A stretch of 42,788 bases of DNA from Candidatus Woesearchaeota archaeon (GCA_964355745.1 CAYHEN010000002.1:1-42788); one strand, 5' to 3'. Counted from the stretch's first letter, positions 1 to 13,094 are shown. Notes: generated by a model not told the origin, from the sequence alone. Translations and numbers: made by a program.

Positions 1-22
1 GGTTCAAATCCGGGCATCCCCA
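1..22 (+). tRNA. 3' fragment of a tRNA gene (T-arm and acceptor strand); isotype undeterminable
   Basis: GGTTCAAATCCGGG T-loop/arm followed by CATCCCC-A acceptor strand and discriminator; truncated by the window edge. Confidence 0.8.
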
Positions 23-42
23 TTCATAGTTAAATAAATAGA

Positions 43-109
43 CGAGCAAAGCGAGTTCAATTTTCGTCCTATGAACTTTGGTTCATATCTCGTCGAATTC
101 AGTGAAGCG
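43..109 (+). repeat. 67-nt structured element E1 ending exactly at the rpl37ae ATG
   Basis: CGAGCAAAGCGAG + 14 nt + hairpin TATGAAC-TTTG-GTTCATA + 22-nt tail; aligns without gaps to 358..424. Confidence 0.85.
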
Positions 110-337
110 ATGCCATCAAAATCAAAAAAAACAAAATCAGCAGGAAGATTCGGGGCAAGATACGGAAGAAAAGTAAGAGTTAAACTGGTAAATGTAGAGC
201 AAAAACAAAGGAAAAAACAAAAATGTCCTTACTGCAAAAAGCCAGGAGTCAAGAGGCTTTCAAAGGGCATATGGCACTGCAAGAAATGCGGCAAAAAATT
301 TGCATCAGATACATATTACTTAGAGGAGAATAAATGA
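110..337 (+). CDS. rpl37ae: 50S ribosomal protein L37ae (eL43)
   Basis: GRFGARYG motif and CPYC...WHCKKC zinc ribbon; probable start MPSK at 110 rather than 71. Confidence 0.97.
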   Translation: MPSKSKKTKSAGRFGARYGRKVRVKLVNVEQKQRKKQKCPYCKKPGVKRLSKGIWHCKKCGKKFASDTYYLEENK

Positions 338-357
338 TGATACATAAATTAAATAAA

Positions 358-424
358 CGAGCGAAGCGAGGCAAAGATAGATGCTTTTGCATTTATGCAA
401 AACCTTGTCGAACTCAATAACGCG
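358..424 (+). repeat. 67-nt structured element E2 ending exactly at the rpoP ATG
   Basis: CGAGCGAAGCGAG + 14 nt + hairpin TTTTGCA-TTTA-TGCAAAA + 22-nt tail similar to E1. Confidence 0.85.
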
Positions 425-562
425 ATGGTTGCGTACAAATGTTTCAAATGCGAGAAGAAAGTTATTTCTACAAATTTGGAAAAGCGGTTCGTCTGTCCTT
501 ATTGTGGAAGCAAGATTTTCTACAAGCCAAGAAGCAAGATAAAAAAAATTAAGGCAGAGTAA
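425..562 (+). CDS. rpoP: DNA-directed RNA polymerase subunit P (Rpo12), 45 aa, not in the ORF track
   Basis: MVAYKCFKCEKKVISTNLEKRFVCPYCGSKIFYKPRSKIKKIKAE; zinc ribbon; canonical position after rpl37ae. Confidence 0.95.
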   Translation: MVAYKCFKCEKKVISTNLEKRFVCPYCGSKIFYKPRSKIKKIKAE

Positions 563-613
563 TTCTAAAAAATGAAAAACAGAACATTTTTCAAAATCCT
601 CACTTCGTTACAA

Positions 614-654
614 CTCGTAACTCCGCTGGTATGGATTACACGCGAAATCGTTTG
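614..654 (-). repeat. degenerate GA-bracketed hairpin element (A5)
   Basis: minus strand AA-ACGATTTCGC-GT-GTAATCCATAC-CA-GCGGAGTTAC-GA-G; resembles 11391..11443 and 21746..21788. Confidence 0.7.
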
Positions 655-678
655 GATACAAAACAGGAGTTTTGCATA

Positions 679-996
679 ATGGACGAAACAAGATTACAAG
701 AGTTGCAGATTCTTGAGCAGAGATTGCAGAATTCAATTCTCCAGAAACAGGCTTTTCAGATGGAACTCGCAGAAACTAATTCTGCCCTGAAAGAAGTTGA
801 AAAATCAGGAGAAGAAGTTTTCAAAATAATCGGACAATTGATGATTAAGGCGGAAAAAGGAAAAATTCAGGAAGAATTGTTATCCAAGGAAAAAATTTTG
901 GAATTAAGGATAAAGACATTCGAGAAACAGGAGAATTCTTTAAGCGAACAAGTGGAAAAAATCAGAGACGAACTGACAAAATCCATGAAAAAGTAA
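679..996 (+). CDS. pfdB: prefoldin subunit beta
   Basis: coiled coil with central VFKIIGQLMI hairpin; start MDET at 679 has a GGAG SD; conserved gene order. Confidence 0.93.
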   Translation: MDETRLQELQILEQRLQNSILQKQAFQMELAETNSALKEVEKSGEEVFKIIGQLMIKAEKGKIQEELLSKEKILELRIKTFEKQENSLSEQVEKIRDELTKSMKK

Positions 997-1059
997 ATAT
1001 TAGGAAATATATAAAAAAAGTTACGAAATCTTTATAAATATATTATATCTAAAGTTGAT

Positions 1060-1452
1060 ATGGCATTCAACCTAAAAAAGATTTTTGGTGGCGCTCCAAA
1101 GGGAGAAGGCAGTGCAGAAGATTATTTAGAAATTGATTTGGATAAAGAGGAAAGAGAAGGGAAGGTTTTAGTGAAACTTTTTGTTTTGAAAAAATACGAA
1201 GATGTCAATACTATCCTTAATGTTTTAAGAGAGGGGTACACTATTGCTATAATAGATATAAAAGTTTTGAAATCAAAAGATCCTATTGAATTGAAGAGGG
1301 CTGTTTCAAAAATCAAAAAGACAGCAGACGCTCTTGAGGGAAATATTGCTGGTTTTGGAGAGAACTTGCTAATTGTTACTCCGCCATTTGCACAGATTCA
1401 AAGAGAAGCTACTCCTCAGGGTCCAGAGCCAAAGAGCAATAAATTCGATTAA
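1060..1452 (+). CDS. sepF: cell division protein SepF
   Basis: archaeal SepF pattern (DYLEID...LREGYTIAIIDI...LKRAVSKIK...GNIAGFGENLLIVTP); TTTATAAA box upstream. Confidence 0.9.
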   Translation: MAFNLKKIFGGAPKGEGSAEDYLEIDLDKEEREGKVLVKLFVLKKYEDVNTILNVLREGYTIAIIDIKVLKSKDPIELKRAVSKIKKTADALEGNIAGFGENLLIVTPPFAQIQREATPQGPEPKSNKFD

Positions 1453-1499
1453 TTCTTAATTTTAGTTAATTTTAAAAACAAGTTATTTTCTATCTTACA

Positions 1500-2117
1500 A
1501 TGAAAACCTTATTTATCCCTGTAAAAATCAATTCAGAAGTCAATGAAAGAAAAATACAATCTCTGAAACTTCCAGAAAGCATAGCAATTGCTTATTCAAT
1601 ACAATACAAGGATATTGCGTTTAAAATAAAAGAAATTTTGTCTAAGAGAAATGAAATAACAGAAATTGTTCAGGTTTTGGGGTGTAGCAAGCCGAAATTC
1701 TCTAAAAATACAAAAGCAATATTATTGATAAGTTCCGGAGAATTTCATGCGGTTTCTCTCGCATTTGAGACTAAACTGCCTATTTATATACTGGAATCCA
1801 GCAAGCTAAGAAAAATTTCAGATGAGGATGTGTATGCTTTTGAAAAACAAAAGTTTGCTTCTTACATGAAATTCCTCAACTCTGAAAAGGTTGGAATTTT
1901 AATTTCAACAAAGCCAGGACAGGAAAATCTGAAAAAAGCTATTGATATTCAGAAAAAACTGAAAGACAAGCAGTCCTATTTGTTTCTCAGCAACGAAATA
2001 GACACAAGACAATTCGAGAATTTTAATGGCATAGATGCATGGATTAATACCTCTTGCCCGCGAATGGATTTTGAGGGATTTGTGTTTAATATGGATGGTT
2101 TGAAGAACAAAAAATAA
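1500..2117 (+). CDS. dph2: diphthamide synthesis protein Dph2 (short form)
   Basis: QVLGC, GEFH, STKPGQ and NTSCPR motifs. Confidence 0.85.
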   Translation: MKTLFIPVKINSEVNERKIQSLKLPESIAIAYSIQYKDIAFKIKEILSKRNEITEIVQVLGCSKPKFSKNTKAILLISSGEFHAVSLAFETKLPIYILESSKLRKISDEDVYAFEKQKFASYMKFLNSEKVGILISTKPGQENLKKAIDIQKKLKDKQSYLFLSNEIDTRQFENFNGIDAWINTSCPRMDFEGFVFNMDGLKNKK

Positions 2118-2223
2118 ATCAAGAAATCTTTATCACCTCTTTTTATTATTTGATTATAAGCAACCAATTATATTTTTTCATTAACTAAATTAGTTATATC
2201 ACGTGCGCTTTAGCGCAGACATA

Positions 2224-2631
2224 TTAAACTCTCGCTAGTCCAAAAACGCTTTTCAATGCAACTATGATTGTTGCAGGCACAAACAATGCTAACAAGCAAG
2301 CAAATATTGTTTGTGCAGTGAAGCCTGCATCAATTCCGATAAGAGAACTTGTAACACTATCCATTCCAAACTTACTTACAATTACAATAATAGTGCTTGT
2401 TATTAAAAATGCCTGAGTATCTTTCCCCTTTGCATTTATAGCAGCTCCGACAACTAACCCAAGGATTACCAATACTAAGTAGATAAAATTGCTGTACTTC
2501 CTGACTATGGATAACGGAACCAAAATTGTCAGTATTCCGATGACTATTGCAATGACAACTCCAATAAAAAATACCCATGCACCAACAGAATTCTCCCTAG
2601 ACTTCATCACCATGTAATAATAGAATTGCAA
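2224..2631 (-). CDS. hypothetical integral membrane protein (about 4 TM)
   Basis: four hydrophobic segments; start probably a few codons downstream. Confidence 0.7.
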   Translation of the reverse strand: MQFYYYMVMKSRENSVGAWVFFIGVVIAIVIGILTILVPLSIVRKYSNFIYLVLVILGLVVGAAINAKGKDTQAFLITSTIIVIVSKFGMDSVTSSLIGIDAGFTAQTIFACLLALFVPATIIVALKSVFGLARV

Positions 2632-2733
2632 GAAATATATAAATCTTCTCCCAAATAAAAAAATCGATGGTTTAATCTATATTTTACAACACAAGAAACC
2701 TTATAAATCATCTTAACTGCAAAATGATTACAC

Positions 2734-4383
2734 ATGATAAACCAGACAAACAACAAATCATTAAGAGTTTTTGGATTGAGTGTATTAGTATTGTTCACTC
2801 TCTTGAGTTTTGCTGGTGCGGCAATAACTCTTACTCCAACTTCAGTGACTTTCAACAAGTTTGAACTAACTAAATCATTTACAATAACTACCGGTACTGA
2901 TAATACTACTCTTACTTTACCTACTACTGTTACAATTTCAGATAATCAAAATCCTGCTAATACTATAATAGTGACATTTGGTACCCCCGTTATAACAGGA
3001 ACCGCAAATCCAGGACCAAATACTACTAATTTAGATATAGGAGAGACTGCAACAATAACTGTTACTTCTACTCTTCCAAGTAATGATTTTACTTTCGGAA
3101 CTTTTTCAGCAACTGCCAATATAACTGCAAGTACAGACACAGCCGGTAAAGTTTTAACACTCAACTTCCAAAACTCACCAAATGAAGAAGCAGACAATGG
3201 AAATTTAAATATAGATGATGTTGATATTTCTGTTACTAACGGCTTTGGAGATGACACAGAATGGTTCCCATTAGATGAAATCAGAGTTAATGTTGATGTA
3301 AGCAATGATGCAAATGATGAAATGAGAAATATTGTTGTTGAATGGGGACTTTATGACAAGCAAAATACGAGATGGGTAATACAGGAAGAAGAAAGCGATT
3401 TTGACTTAGATGAAGATGATGGAAAAACATTGGAATTTTCTTTTATTCTTGACAACATGAACCGGATTGAAACTGATGGAGATTATGTGTTCTATGTATG
3501 GGCTACAGGAGATGATAAGGAAACTGATAACGAAACTTCAACTTTTTCTTCTTTGCCTATTGATATAGTTATTGACAGCCATTTTGTAGTCCTTGATTCC
3601 CTTGAGCTTGTAGGAACAGCTTCATGCGGTGATACAATTCAAGTTTCAGGAGAAGTTTGGAATATCGGAGATGATGATGAACAGGATGTTTATCTCAAGG
3701 TTTTCAACACACTATTAGGAATTTCACAGAGAGTAGATTTAGGAGATATAGACAGCCTTGAGTCTAAAGATTTGTTATTCAATATTGTTATTCCAGAAGA
3801 TGCAGAAGAAGGAAAATCTTATGATATAACTTTCTTAGTATATGATGACAGTGATGACATATTTGAAAACAGCAATGGAGATGAATCAGAATTCAGCCTT
3901 CCATTAAATATTGCACCAGGAAGCTGTTCAGCAGAAGTTCCTGTTGTAGTAACTGCTAGCTTAGAAACAGCAGCAAAAGCAGGAGAAGAATTCACTGTCA
4001 AGGCAACAGTAACCAACACAGCTTCAATAAAGAAAACCTTCATTTTTGAAGTAGGCGGATATACTGATTGGGCTACATTCGTTTCTGTAGACAAGCCAAG
4101 CTTGACTTTAGATGCAGGAAAATCAACAGAGGTTTTAATCAAGTTAAAGGCAAATGAAGGAGTTTCTGGAAGCAAGAACTTCAACATTGTTATGAAAGAA
4201 GGAAGCAAGGTTTTAACACAGCCAGTTTCAGTTTCAGTAGCAGGAAAAGGATTCAGCCTTACAGGATGGATTTCAGGATTGGGGCTTGGCGGAAATACTT
4301 ACTTATGGGCTATTGGAGCGTTGAATGTCCTTTTAGTCTTGATAATAATTGTGGTAGCAGTGAGAGTTGTCAGGAAGAAGTAA
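2734..4383 (+). CDS. secreted acidic surface (S-layer-like) glycoprotein with Ig/CARDB-like domains and C-terminal TM anchor
   Basis: signal peptide, D/E/T-rich beta segments, VWNIGDDDE CARDB-like motif, C-terminal TM then RVVRKK. Confidence 0.8.
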   Translation: MINQTNNKSLRVFGLSVLVLFTLLSFAGAAITLTPTSVTFNKFELTKSFTITTGTDNTTLTLPTTVTISDNQNPANTIIVTFGTPVITGTANPGPNTTNLDIGETATITVTSTLPSNDFTFGTFSATANITASTDTAGKVLTLNFQNSPNEEADNGNLNIDDVDISVTNGFGDDTEWFPLDEIRVNVDVSNDANDEMRNIVVEWGLYDKQNTRWVIQEEESDFDLDEDDGKTLEFSFILDNMNRIETDGDYVFYVWATGDDKETDNETSTFSSLPIDIVIDSHFVVLDSLELVGTASCGDTIQVSGEVWNIGDDDEQDVYLKVFNTLLGISQRVDLGDIDSLESKDLLFNIVIPEDAEEGKSYDITFLVYDDSDDIFENSNGDESEFSLPLNIAPGSCSAEVPVVVTASLETAAKAGEEFTVKATVTNTASIKKTFIFEVGGYTDWATFVSVDKPSLTLDAGKSTEVLIKLKANEGVSGSKNFNIVMKEGSKVLTQPVSVSVAGKGFSLTGWISGLGLGGNTYLWAIGALNVLLVLIIIVVAVRVVRKK

Positions 4384-11474: not shown

Positions 11475-12052
11475 GTTCTCTTCTCCTCTGAACTCACCAT
11501 AAGTCGTGCAAGTTCGCATTTATCATATATCATAATTCCATTTGATTCTTTTCTGCATAAGGAAACAAAATTAGAGATAGCAGGCAGAGTGTTCACGTCT
11601 TTGTCAAGAATATTCAAGATATCACAATCAGGATAGTTGCTCTCACTGCAAACGACATTTCCTTCGCTTGGATAAACTTTCCTTAATTCTATCTTTGCCA
11701 CTCTCCAGAGCTCTGAATCTTCGTCTACTCTGTACTTTAAAGCGATTAATTTGTCAAAATCAACACAGCTTGTTCTGCTACTCCCAAATGCATTTCCGCA
11801 TGAAAATTCAGGAGAATTCGCTAATTTAGAAACAAGGAGCATTGCATTCTGCTCTTCAAGATTAGTCGCTGTTTTCTTGACATTATACAATCTTATAGAC
11901 AAGAAGAAAATACCGACAAGTATGAATAAGAAAGTCACAGCTACAAGCATAAAAGTCATCTGCTGGATTTTCATTTGTGCCGAGCGACTTCGCGGAAGAC
12001 AGGCTCGTGATAAACGAGCGAAGTCGCGAGTTGTTTTTGTTATTTTTCTCAT
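11471..12052 (-). CDS. class III signal peptide (type IV pilin-like) protein
   Basis: RSA|QMKIQQMTFMLVAVTFLFILVGIFF; Cys-containing globular domain. Confidence 0.8.
   Translation of the reverse strand: MRKITKTTRDFARLSRACLPRSRSAQMKIQQMTFMLVAVTFLFILVGIFFLSIRLYNVKKTATNLEEQNAMLLVSKLANSPEFSCGNAFGSSRTSCVDFDKLIALKYRVDEDSELWRVAKIELRKVYPSEGNVVCSESNYPDCDILNILDKDVNTLPAISNFVSLCRKESNGIMIYDKCELARLMVSSEEKRT
11981..12030 (+). repeat. GA-bracketed hairpin element A2, in-frame within a pilin leader
   Basis: C-GA-GCGACTTCGC-GG-(20 nt)-GA-GCGAAGTCGC-GA-G, perfect 10-bp stem. Confidence 0.85.
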
Positions 12053-12067
12053 TTTTGATTCTTTTAT

Positions 12068-12153
12068 GCGATTTCCATCGGAGGCAGTTGGAGAAATCGC
12101 CCCAACACTACCGAAAAGGAAGGTTGATTGTCAAGGAAACCAAGGTTTCCTTG
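12068..12153. repeat. hairpin module B (second copy at 21685) plus palindrome CAAGGAAAC-CAAG-GTTTCCTTG
   Basis: GCGATTTC...GAAATCGC; about 60 bp aligns with 21685..21743. Confidence 0.8.
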
Positions 12154-12155
12154 CA

Positions 12156-13094
12156 TTACCATAACATGCAAATCCCCGCGTTATTTTTCTCTTCTATTAT
12201 GTCTGCTTTCATTTTGACTAAAGCCAAATGCTCAGAGCTTCTTAAACTTGAAGCCATGTCGCTTAATTCTTCCAAATCATTTCCAAGATTTTCTCCACAC
12301 CCTTTTTTCTTGGTAATCATTTCTTTATCCTTGTATAATAAGGAAATCTCCTTTACTCTCATCATCAACCTGTTCACTTGGCATTCATAAACATCCTTGT
12401 TTGAGAAAATCGCAGCATACATCAATGCTTTTGCATCTTCCCCAATCCCCGCGAAATACATGTTCTCTCCATCTTTTTCAACAACCCCTGAATCATAATC
12501 AACATTTATGTCACAATTTCCTCCACCAAAACAAACTTTTATTTCTTCTCCAGTGCACCACCCTTCAACCAGCAGGTTGCTCTGGTTTAAATCCAATATT
12601 TCTTCTTCTACATCATTTGGAGCGCTGATAAAACAATAAAAATCATTTGCAGAAGTCATGTAGATTAAATCAGTTATCTTGAAGGGAAATTGAAAAGGTT
12701 TTGAGAAAATGTAAAATTTTTTTCCTTCAATTTCTTCATCTGAGAAAATATATTTGTTATTGAAGAAGACATTTATATCTGTCTTAGTCCATTTGTTAAA
12801 ATTCTTTTGGTCTAATTGTATTATCTGTCTTCCAAAGCTGCCAAGCTCATCGCAACTATTATGAATTCTTGTCTCAGAAGGAATGCTTATAGAGGTTGTT
12901 TGACTTGATTCAAAGCTCGTTTCAAGAGGATTTAACAGGATTCCAATCTCTTTTCCTGTTTCAGCACTTATGATTTCTTTTTCTGTGCTTATCAATCTCG
13001 TGCTGAAATAAATAGCAAAAAATAAGATTATTGCTCCTGCAATCAATGCAAAAAGCCAACCAAAGGATATTTCTAAAGCACCTCTTTTAATCAT
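12156..13094 (-). CDS. class III signal peptide (pilin-like) protein
   Basis: MIKRG|ALEISFGWLFALIAGAIILFF. Confidence 0.8.
   Translation of the reverse strand: MIKRGALEISFGWLFALIAGAIILFFAIYFSTRLISTEKEIISAETGKEIGILLNPLETSFESSQTTSISIPSETRIHNSCDELGSFGRQIIQLDQKNFNKWTKTDINVFFNNKYIFSDEEIEGKKFYIFSKPFQFPFKITDLIYMTSANDFYCFISAPNDVEEEILDLNQSNLLVEGWCTGEEIKVCFGGGNCDINVDYDSGVVEKDGENMYFAGIGEDAKALMYAAIFSNKDVYECQVNRLMMRVKEISLLYKDKEMITKKKGCGENLGNDLEELSDMASSLRSSEHLALVKMKADIIEEKNNAGICMLW

Follow-up and report, generated by a model that had tools for sequence, protein, structure and literature searches.

Leaderless mRNAs predominate in many archaea and, to our knowledge, little is known about how archaeal genes acquire leaders. 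Among mobile sequences the closest systems include the IS200/IS605-derived palindrome-associated elements and the REP/RAYT systems, which are short hairpin-bearing repeats moved by Y1 transposases. Near-identical non-coding sequences lying before unrelated genes have also been described, mostly in bacteria, as putative mobile promoters, defined at positions -150 to -50 and by sequence identity of 80% or more across 50 nt or more upstream of non-paralogous genes (PMC3575422). Another report describes an archaeal bulge-helix-bulge precedent, a 46-nt intron in the 5' untranslated region of Haloferax HVO_1309 (PMC7714728). Here we consider two 67-nt elements that lie directly before the start codons of rpl37ae and rpoP, at 43-109 and 358-424 of a 42,788-nt stretch of DNA ("the window") which forms the start of contig C2 in the assembly of a Candidatus Woesearchaeota archaeon (GCA_964355745.1, CAYHEN010000002.1:1-42788; 792 kb, 57 contigs, 32.5% G+C; genome label G000).

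Both elements are probably copies of a lineage-restricted, modular and movable 5' leader cassette of a few tiny groundwater archaea. Comparison between genomes shows that the cassette is DNA which is present or absent between close relatives and has been copied between unrelated loci, and that its sense copies end at start codons, mostly of highly expressed informational genes. We count 24 distinct sense copies (six in this genome, four in three relatives and 14 on metagenome contigs), 21 of which end 0 nt and three 1 nt before an ATG. A preliminary description of the window had placed the cassette at the start codons of core genes, and had named random placement relative to the ATG, or a lack of further copies, as findings that would speak against this. 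These counts support the placement and counter the first objection, and the second is answered by the copies found in the same genome, in three relatives and in metagenomes.

Anatomy and distribution of the cassette

The equal length of the two window elements, their alignment without gaps and their contact with the ATG codons of rpl37ae and rpoP stand as first described, on the strength of the alignment and of Pfam and NCBIfam matches. The arms of their second hairpins differ (TATGAAC/GTTCATA and TTTTGCA/TGCAAAA) and pair perfectly over 7 bp in each copy. The features of the region are as follows.

1..24, + strand: 3' end of a tRNA gene truncated by the contig start, with T arm GGTTCAAATCC and acceptor strand
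30..42, + strand: A/T-rich left part of copy 1, TTAAATAAATAGA, common to other head-type copies
43..55, + strand: hairpin 1 ("head") of copy 1, CGAGCAAAGCGAG, with five paired positions (2/12 G.A, 3/11 A.G) and a 3-nt loop
56..69, + strand: linker of copy 1, TTCAATTTTCGTCC, a diverged version of (G/A)CAAWTTTCGATGC
70..87, + strand: hairpin 2 of copy 1, TATGAAC TTTG GTTCATA
88..109, + strand: conserved 22-nt tail of copy 1, TCTCGTCGAATTCAGTGAAGCG, abutting the ATG at 110-112
110..337, + strand: rpl37ae, 75 codons and stop (Ribosomal_L37ae, PF01780, 82.8 bits)
345..357, + strand: A/T-rich left part of copy 2, TAAATTAAATAAA
358..370, + strand: hairpin 1 (head) of copy 2, CGAGCGAAGCGAG
371..384, + strand: linker of copy 2, GCAAAGATAGATGC
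385..402, + strand: hairpin 2 of copy 2, TTTTGCA TTTA TGCAAAA
403..424, + strand: conserved tail of copy 2, CCTTGTCGAACTCAATAACGCG, abutting the ATG at 425-427
425..562, + strand: rpoP, 45 codons and stop (best NCBIfam match RNA polymerase subunit P, E 5e-12, under the curated cut-off)
572..679, + strand: segment between rpoP and prefoldin beta, starting ATGAAAAAC; a cassette site that is empty here

Aligned without gaps, the two elements are identical at 40 of 67 positions (head 12/13, linker 5/14, hairpin 2 7/18, tail 16/22). Copy 2 is the best ungapped 67-mer match to copy 1 on either strand of the whole window, the next best having 34 identical positions against a mean of 17.5 (sd 3.5). 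At up to two mismatches the 13-mer CGAGCRAAGCGAG has three matches in the window compared with 0.42 expected, and the two exact ones are the two elements. Some details first reported for the elements need adjusting. The TTTR loop of hairpin 2 is borne out (TTTG and TTTA), and the A/T-rich stretches just 5' of the elements, 30-42 and 345-357, are shared as well. Since the 30-42 stretch recurs in other head-type copies, for example as ATAAATAGA ahead of the RNase J copy of genome G016, it is likely part of the cassette. The reported GCGAAGC core is missing from copy 1, which reads GCAAAGC; d(GCGAAGC) itself forms a DNA mini-hairpin of unusual stability. The larger family of GCGAAG-type hairpins mentioned in the same description probably corresponds to GC-rich inverted repeats, CTCGCGACTTCGCTCG ... 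CCGCGAAGTCGCTCGG, in an intergenic region of the window (11990-12060, - strand).

Across the family the layout is an A/T-rich left part, hairpin 1, the linker (G/A)CAAWTTTCGATGC, hairpin 2, a 22-nt tail (YCTYGTCGAAYTCA followed by 8 nt) and the ATG. Hairpin 1 is the 13-mer in the head-type copies, TGAATTAAATTCA in the L44e copy, GCTGAAAT..ATTTCGGC in the S10 copy, CTTGCAAT TT ATTGCAAG in the copy on contig C6, TGAGT TT ACTCA in the G016 copy ahead of a 38-aa basic protein, and TAAATC AAA GATTTA in the copy before TBP in genome G129. Its sequence thus changes from locus to locus with the pairing always kept. Within the 13-mer, the variant CGAACGAAGTGAG (contigs C32 and C28, genome G012 and locus L282) replaces a G-C with an A-T pair, and the variant TTCACGAAGTGAG (locus L258) turns both G.A positions into standard pairs, so that all five positions are paired. 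These compensatory variants indicate that the 13-mer hairpin, as originally proposed, is real and that its G.A positions are paired positions. A kink-turn of the kind bound by L7Ae, suggested by the tandem G.A pairs and built on a 3-nt bulge beside conserved sheared G.A pairs, is not indicated, given these standard pairs in L258 and a 13-mer without a bulge. A coding role for the 13-mer was also considered, since some frames give RAKR and the copy on contig C10 falls within an open frame, but was dropped because CGAACGAAGTGAG has TGA in that frame. At that site (C10:2432-2464, - strand) the 13-mer and ACAAATTTAG are contained in one continuous open frame (...DKFRAKRDKFRSIKMAIDSS...), which could reflect an in-frame insertion or a true start at the next ATG.

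Hairpin 2 occurs with at least six types of arm, and a stem of at least 6 bp is found just ahead of the tail (gap of 0-1 nt) in 12 of 13 copies, a 6-bp stem being attained by 14.5% of random 28-mers from the genome. In the RpoP and G000 RNase J copies our script chose a competing 8-bp hairpin lying 6 nt from the tail; the 7- and 6-bp hairpin-2 stems of these copies abut the tail. This competing hairpin, ATAGATGC TTTT GCATTTAT at 377-396 and likewise in the RNase J copy on contig C3, rules out simultaneous formation of hairpin 2 in this sub-family, and a two-state structure is therefore possible. In several copies complementarity between the linker and the first half of the tail (UUCGAUG/UGUCGAA) allows a helix to form around hairpin 2, with the last 12-14 nt and the AUG left unpaired.

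The tail itself appears to be constrained. At seven L44e loci encoding differing proteins its mean identity is 0.87, compared with 0.58 at third positions of same-residue codons (21 pairs, which are not independent), and by this measure the tail is shown to change at a lower rate than synonymous sites. At the same orthologous loci the hairpins are altered on both arms, as in TTCTGAAAT/ATTTCAGAA at locus L286. A Shine-Dalgarno motif is missing from the tail in most copies. Pairing of the tail with 16S rRNA was dropped as an explanation, the 3' end in congeners being the usual GGATCACCTCCT and the best tail complement 7 nt; in this assembly the small-subunit rRNA gene was not found.

Copies were sought with nhmmer and pattern scans in the 792-kb genome, and with a covariance model (R1) in 17 genomes of the genus and in 101 genomes sampled from the family, one per genus. 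The exact 13-mer occurs four times in this genome. Three full copies precede L37Ae, RpoP and RNase J (the last on C3, E 1.7e-23), and three copies with other first hairpins precede S10 (C8), L44e (C19) and an unnamed 274-aa protein (C6). All six of these tail-bearing sense copies end 0 nt from the ATG, apart from that of L44e (1 nt), and a head-plus-linker fragment is present at C10. R1 detects the family in three of the 17 genus genomes, with seven matches here, three in G016 and two in G012 (one of the latter weak and within a coding region), and in three of the 101 family-wide genomes, namely this one, G024 and G129. The sense copies of G016 precede RNase J and the 38-aa basic protein, which is matched by no family and which in our own reading would be L41e; both end at the ATG, as does the G129 copy before TBP (PF00352, 191.9 bits).

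A metagenome scan using the tail without the ATG as its pattern gave 38 loci, 18 of them GC-rich coding matches without the layout and 20 of them AT-rich with the full layout. Eighteen of the AT-rich loci lie before genes (16 at 0 nt and two at +1), four of these repeating sequences counted before, and two lie within RNase P RNA. The metagenome genes named by Pfam or NCBIfam are L44e (seven contigs), S10, L31e, S6e, S15, ProRS and a metallophosphoesterase, the rest being unnamed, and one copy-bearing database record is titled Candidatus Pacearchaeota. Taken together, the genes behind copies are mostly informational (L37Ae, RpoP, RNase J, S10, L44e, L41e, L31e, S6e, S15, TBP and ProRS). Two other searches were less selective: a 14-nt pattern with one mismatch was too noisy in relatives, with up to four matches per genome in reversed-pattern controls, and a 22-nt degenerate pattern run on genome contigs returned mostly GC-rich bacterial coding sequence, one of the 80 loci examined among the matches listed being AT-rich and genuine.

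The order tRNA, rpl37ae, rpoP, prefoldin beta is kept in 30 of 30 related loci, and the name rpoP rests on this order as well as on the family match. ARAGORN gives no call for the truncated tRNA at 1..24, which from the anticodon loop of relatives we read as tRNA-Pro. The segment 572-679 is found only in this genome and G012 among the 30 loci compared, with a 41-nt length difference between the two, and varies in metagenome contigs (which join 609 to 654); it is doubtful that its short frame (35 codons here, 21 in G012) is a gene. Rfam has no match in the window at gathering score, and ARAGORN calls no tRNA-like fold in it.

Insertion and movement

The junctions of relatives, which it had been suggested to compare, include empty sites in congeners. 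In this genome 87 nt separate rpl37ae from rpoP, compared with 1-14 nt in 12 of 16 congeners, the exceptions being G012 (35 nt), G004 (72 nt) and G002 and G005 (89 nt of plain A/T-rich sequence), and the rpl37ae ATG lies about 20-30 nt past the tRNA in most relatives. In metagenome DNA contigs of related organisms, window positions 24 and 110, and likewise 322 and 425, are joined through 17-19 other nucleotides. Conversely, G012 carries a 68-nt cassette copy exactly before the ATG equivalent to window position 572, where this genome is empty. At S10 the element is missing from 12 of 14 genus loci, where TTTTTAAA is followed by about 22 nt and ATGAC. Here the same locus reads TTTATAAA, 21 nt, ATG, hairpin 1, linker, hairpin 2, tail, ATGGCA, its first ATG standing at the position of the empty-site ATG, and in G016 hairpin 1 and the linker are present alone (37 nt). 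Between the tRNA and rpl37ae, hairpin inserts of unrelated sequence are seen at loci L040, L042, L036 and L045 (G004, G013, G003 and G007), for example GCACGAGTGC mini-hairpins and CTTTTTCGAAAGAAAAAG; similar hairpins are also present in the tRNA-Lys introns of G016 and G029.

The RpoP and RNase J copies of this genome, which precede unrelated genes, have 0.90 identity over 67 nt, a value above the similarity threshold for mobile promoters, at a position that differs from -150 to -50. The RNase J copies of G000 and G016 have 0.71 identity, and the G000 L37Ae copy and the G016 RNase J copy have 0.85, left flank ATAAATAGA included. Comparison of the copies thus shows that those at different loci within one genome are more alike than those at orthologous loci. 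The construction is modular: at locus L273 a second module is nested inside the loop of hairpin 2, the L44e copy of this genome looks like such a nest after deletion, and at L258 a partial tail is followed directly by a new cassette. As regards the early suggestion that the cassette inserts at, or supplies, start codons, insertion is therefore supported; supply of an ATG and duplication of an existing one are inseparable, since 10 of the 24 copies have an ATG at both the left and the right edge (with ATGGC at S10 and ATGGA at RNase J).

These properties could belong to a purely selfish element, an IS200/IS605-like non-autonomous transposon of single-stranded DNA that depends on a Y1 transposase and survives where it is harmless, before starts and in the loops of stable RNAs. 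Such an element would account for two hairpins with conserved flanks, for presence and absence between relatives, and for the insertions in loops (RNase P P15 in two genera, hairpin 2 of L273 and a tRNA anticodon), and the genome with the most copies has one Y1 gene, a solo IS200-type gene at C22:546-893 (- strand, 136 codons, 85.6 bits). We nonetheless consider this explanation unlikely. The Y1 gene is present in six of 41 relatives and was not found in the copy-holding genomes G012, G016 and G024 (85-92% complete; G129 was outside the search), and the hairpins that flank it, GCCGAG ATA CTCGGC and CTCGGGC TTT AGCCCGAG, differ from those of the cassette. There is no constant 4-5 nt target, the bottom-strand flank being CAT at the mRNA copies and TTA, CCT or GGT in stable RNAs, and the matching subterminal hairpins and constant target motif expected of IS200/IS605 elements are not seen. 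Nor does the cassette resemble a miniature inverted-repeat transposable element: terminal inverted repeats are absent, the left end and tail not being complementary and each hairpin being internal, and a longer, autonomous element sharing these ends was not found in this genome. In many copies CGAT(G) stands on both sides of the hairpin-2-plus-tail module, and it could be a target duplication or part of the predicted helix. A purely selfish element would also leave unexplained the conservation of the tail beyond synonymous sites and the 0-nt junction in 21 of 24 copies.

Promoter geometry and upstream start codons

Of the 565 open reading frames in this genome with at least 150 codons, 95 have TTTAWA starting at exactly -29 relative to the ATG and 35 have it at -27. 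The promoter consensus is A-rich from -36 to -32, with TTTAWAAA at -29 to -22 and T at -1, and Shine-Dalgarno-like words give just a small peak near -14. The sharp TATA spacing implies that most mRNAs of the genome are leaderless. As the usual TATA 29 nt before the ATG is the leaderless geometry, the cassette places 55-80 nt between promoter and ATG. In a scan with a position weight matrix (PWM) built from the genome's own promoters, on which true sites have a median score of 12.3 and 99.9% of the background stays under 7.2, a strong canonical promoter (12-14.5) is seen upstream of 11 of the 24 copies. The predicted starts lie 2-12 nt before hairpin 1 in most of these and 18 nt before it at the G016 RNase J copy; at S10 and at G016 RNase J they fall exactly on the ATG at the left edge of the cassette.

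A leader cassette with these properties would act as RNA in the sense orientation. Hairpin 1 would lie at or near the RNA 5' end, the linker would pair with the first half of the tail (UUCGAUG/UGUCGAA) around hairpin 2, and the last 12-14 nt and the AUG would be single-stranded. Our best guess is that such an arrangement would serve as a portable expression module, combining protection of the 5' end with a defined initiation region without a Shine-Dalgarno sequence.

A number of observations weigh against a leader cassette of this kind. The sequencing runs listed for window positions 1-3000 include none of RNA. Movement is accounted for by no transposase, terminal inverted repeats or consistent target duplication. 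The family is missing from 14 of the 17 genus genomes and is therefore dispensable, and degenerate or head-only copies at C32, C28 and C52 lie away from any ATG. The head-type copies, including both in the window, are without a strong canonical promoter upstream (PWM 0.8-3.9). Because of these weak promoters, hairpin 1 of the head-type copies may sit between a weak TATA and the start and be untranscribed from there, and the presence of hairpin 1 in the RNA may differ between copies. The sense-strand folding energies of the two window copies are not clearly lower than those of shuffled sequences (z = -0.28 and -2.06). In the model-fitted alignment just 72% of cells are paired, because the stems differ in length and register; per-copy stems were relied on instead, and the case for structure rests on covariation across copies, not on folding energy. 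Recurrent copying between loci could also explain part of the high identity of the tails.

The ATG at the left edge of 10 copies suggests a role for upstream reading frames, in which a left-edge AUG, the old leaderless start, would load ribosomes that terminate at a T(A/G)A situated in the tail 4 nt short of the real AUG and restart there. Six of the 10 frames stay open for 23-32 codons and stop at -7 despite differing hairpin lengths, T(A/G)A occupies that place of the tail in 16 of 24 copies, and the predicted starts on the left-edge ATG at S10 and G016 RNase J fit the proposal. Before rpoP, an ATG ATG at 334-339 (upstream ATGs at -91 and -88) starts a frame of 27-28 codons which stops at the TAA at 418-420. 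However, 14 of the 24 copies, many with ATA, have no left-edge ATG and eight tails lack a stop in that position, the S10 and L267 frames terminate earlier and that of L41e continues, and the copies are related, so that none of these counts is independent. It is improbable that reinitiation of this kind explains the family.

The geometry of the head-type copies could instead point to a DNA promoter cassette, in which the A/T-rich part is the TATA and the 13-mer between TATA and start is an operator or melting element. Every head-type copy has a TTAAATAA-like sequence 0-4 nt ahead of its 13-mer. In these copies the sole TATA-like sequence touches the 13-mer and the start would fall just past it; the 29-nt spacing puts starts just after the head, at about 58-62 and at 377, and the rpoP copy would be an internal promoter. 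Against this, the A/T-rich part scores 0.8-3.9 compared with the median of 12.3 (the stretch at 30..42, with 1.2, is a weak match to the genome's own TATA model), strong promoters sit farther upstream in other copies, and a hairpin 1 that varies in sequence with its pairing kept is a poor fit for a single DNA-binding protein. We therefore do not expect promoter function to be the correct explanation.

The antisense module and comparison with known systems

The entire 41-nt intron of tRNA-Lys(UUU) in this genome (C15:11341-11458) is the reverse complement of hairpin 2 plus tail, with 18 of 22 tail positions alike. In G016, of the same genus, and in G024, of another genus, the RNase P RNA has its P15 loop extended by an insert of about 47 nt, likewise the reverse complement of hairpin 2 plus tail. 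Among 23 RNase P RNAs, 18 have a plain P15 hairpin of 11-14 nt and only those of G016 and G024 have the module (two were not parsed by the pattern and one was over-read); the RNase P RNA of this genome is without the insert. The 5' motif of the module recurs in the tRNA-Lys introns of G004 and G008 and partly in that of G016, and the tRNA-Lys genes of most congeners match without an intron. These comparisons show that hairpin 2 plus tail is a separate module of about 41-48 nt, found in the opposite orientation inside loops of stable RNA genes. Given its placement in the intron, in P15 and in L273, the module occupies hairpin loops, namely those of the anticodon, of P15 and of hairpin 2.

The borders of the tRNA-Lys copy form a plausible bulge-helix-bulge (from the ARAGORN intron and the fold, with the motif read by eye), and none was found at the borders of the leader copies. 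Cleavage at CG|AUG, which could restore a leaderless mRNA, is a speculative idea for which no supporting structure was found at the leader borders. Modules of other tRNA introns, for example GAACCNAGGTTCC followed by a CCTCC-like sequence and common to introns of tRNA-Arg, Gln, Glu, Val, Ser and Lys, are repeated at sites that ARAGORN does not call as tRNA genes, namely at 12027-12180 of the window (- strand, including 12106-12138) and at C8:941, C24:4185, C11:12027, C31:227 and C6:18374. The window site has no match in Rfam, and these modules may be missed intron-bearing tRNA genes or another movable module.

The opposed orientations raise the question of a regulatory pair, with the leader in cis and an antisense RNA in trans (the tRNA-Lys(UUU) intron here, the RNase P insert in G016 and G024) tuning translation of ribosomal and polymerase genes. 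The complementarity just described would allow this; the G016 insert would form 14 consecutive pairs with the RNase J leader (one G.U wobble, 13 identical positions), and this genome and G016 each hold one antisense copy beside several sense ones. Free yeast tRNA introns are reported to reduce complementary mRNAs, according to a preprint (10.1101/2025.11.19.689297). Common descent explains complementarity without function, however, and in our own reading the mismatches of the intron with the leaders of its own genome are A.C or C.A, with no wobble. The distribution also fits poorly: for G012 and G129 only sense copies were found and for G024 only an antisense one, and related tRNA-Lys introns are present in G004 and G008, genomes that lack leader copies. 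We would put little weight on such regulation. Chance similarity or a simple local duplication, as two copies 315 nt apart in one operon might suggest, is refuted by the copies on five other contigs, in other genomes and in metagenomes, and by a similarity that is independent of distance or locus.

The leader cassette may, more speculatively, be a start-codon-homing element. Its insertion point would be the first base of a gene, the position at which transcription starts in leaderless genes, so that these would become leadered; entry would perhaps be through single-stranded DNA at very active promoters and through hairpin loops, and the complement in a tRNA intron or RNase P RNA could act on all leaders at once. 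This proposal as a whole is tentative and, in our estimation, has a small chance of being correct. Irrespective of mechanism, the loci offer a structured leader without a Shine-Dalgarno sequence, placed base-exactly before core-gene starts, repeatedly in close relatives and with the empty sites visible. The insertion series is thus a natural before-and-after set for leader effects on stability and initiation. The presence of one module in mRNA leaders, a tRNA intron and RNase P RNA ties small mobile sequences to RNA-processing substrates in reduced, DPANN-type genomes.

No paper describing such an element turned up in the part of the literature searched. The cassette resembles mobile promoters and the promoter-carrying Correia, ERIC and REPIN repeats in being patchy among relatives and in that it may carry regulatory RNA structure. 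It differs from mobile promoters in being archaeal, in reaching exactly to the ATG, in making leaderless genes leadered, and in having a module that recurs in a tRNA intron and in RNase P RNA. With the IS200/IS605-derived and REP/RAYT elements it has in common its hairpins, the plausibility of loops and single-stranded DNA as targets, and a Y1 gene in this genome; unlike them it has no constant target motif, and Y1 was not found in three of the four copy-holding relatives. The likeness to archaeal bulge-helix-bulge introns, which include movable tRNA introns, is that the 41-nt module makes up the whole tRNA-Lys intron, with a spliced 5' untranslated region precedent of similar size in Haloferax, whereas the leader copies have the opposite orientation and no bulge-helix-bulge was found at their borders. 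Finally, the cassette is like ribosomal-protein leader RNAs in being a conserved structured leader with covarying stems that stands before ribosomal protein genes; it is unlike them in that one motif precedes many genes (TBP, RNase J and ProRS too), has no Rfam match and is patchy within a genus.

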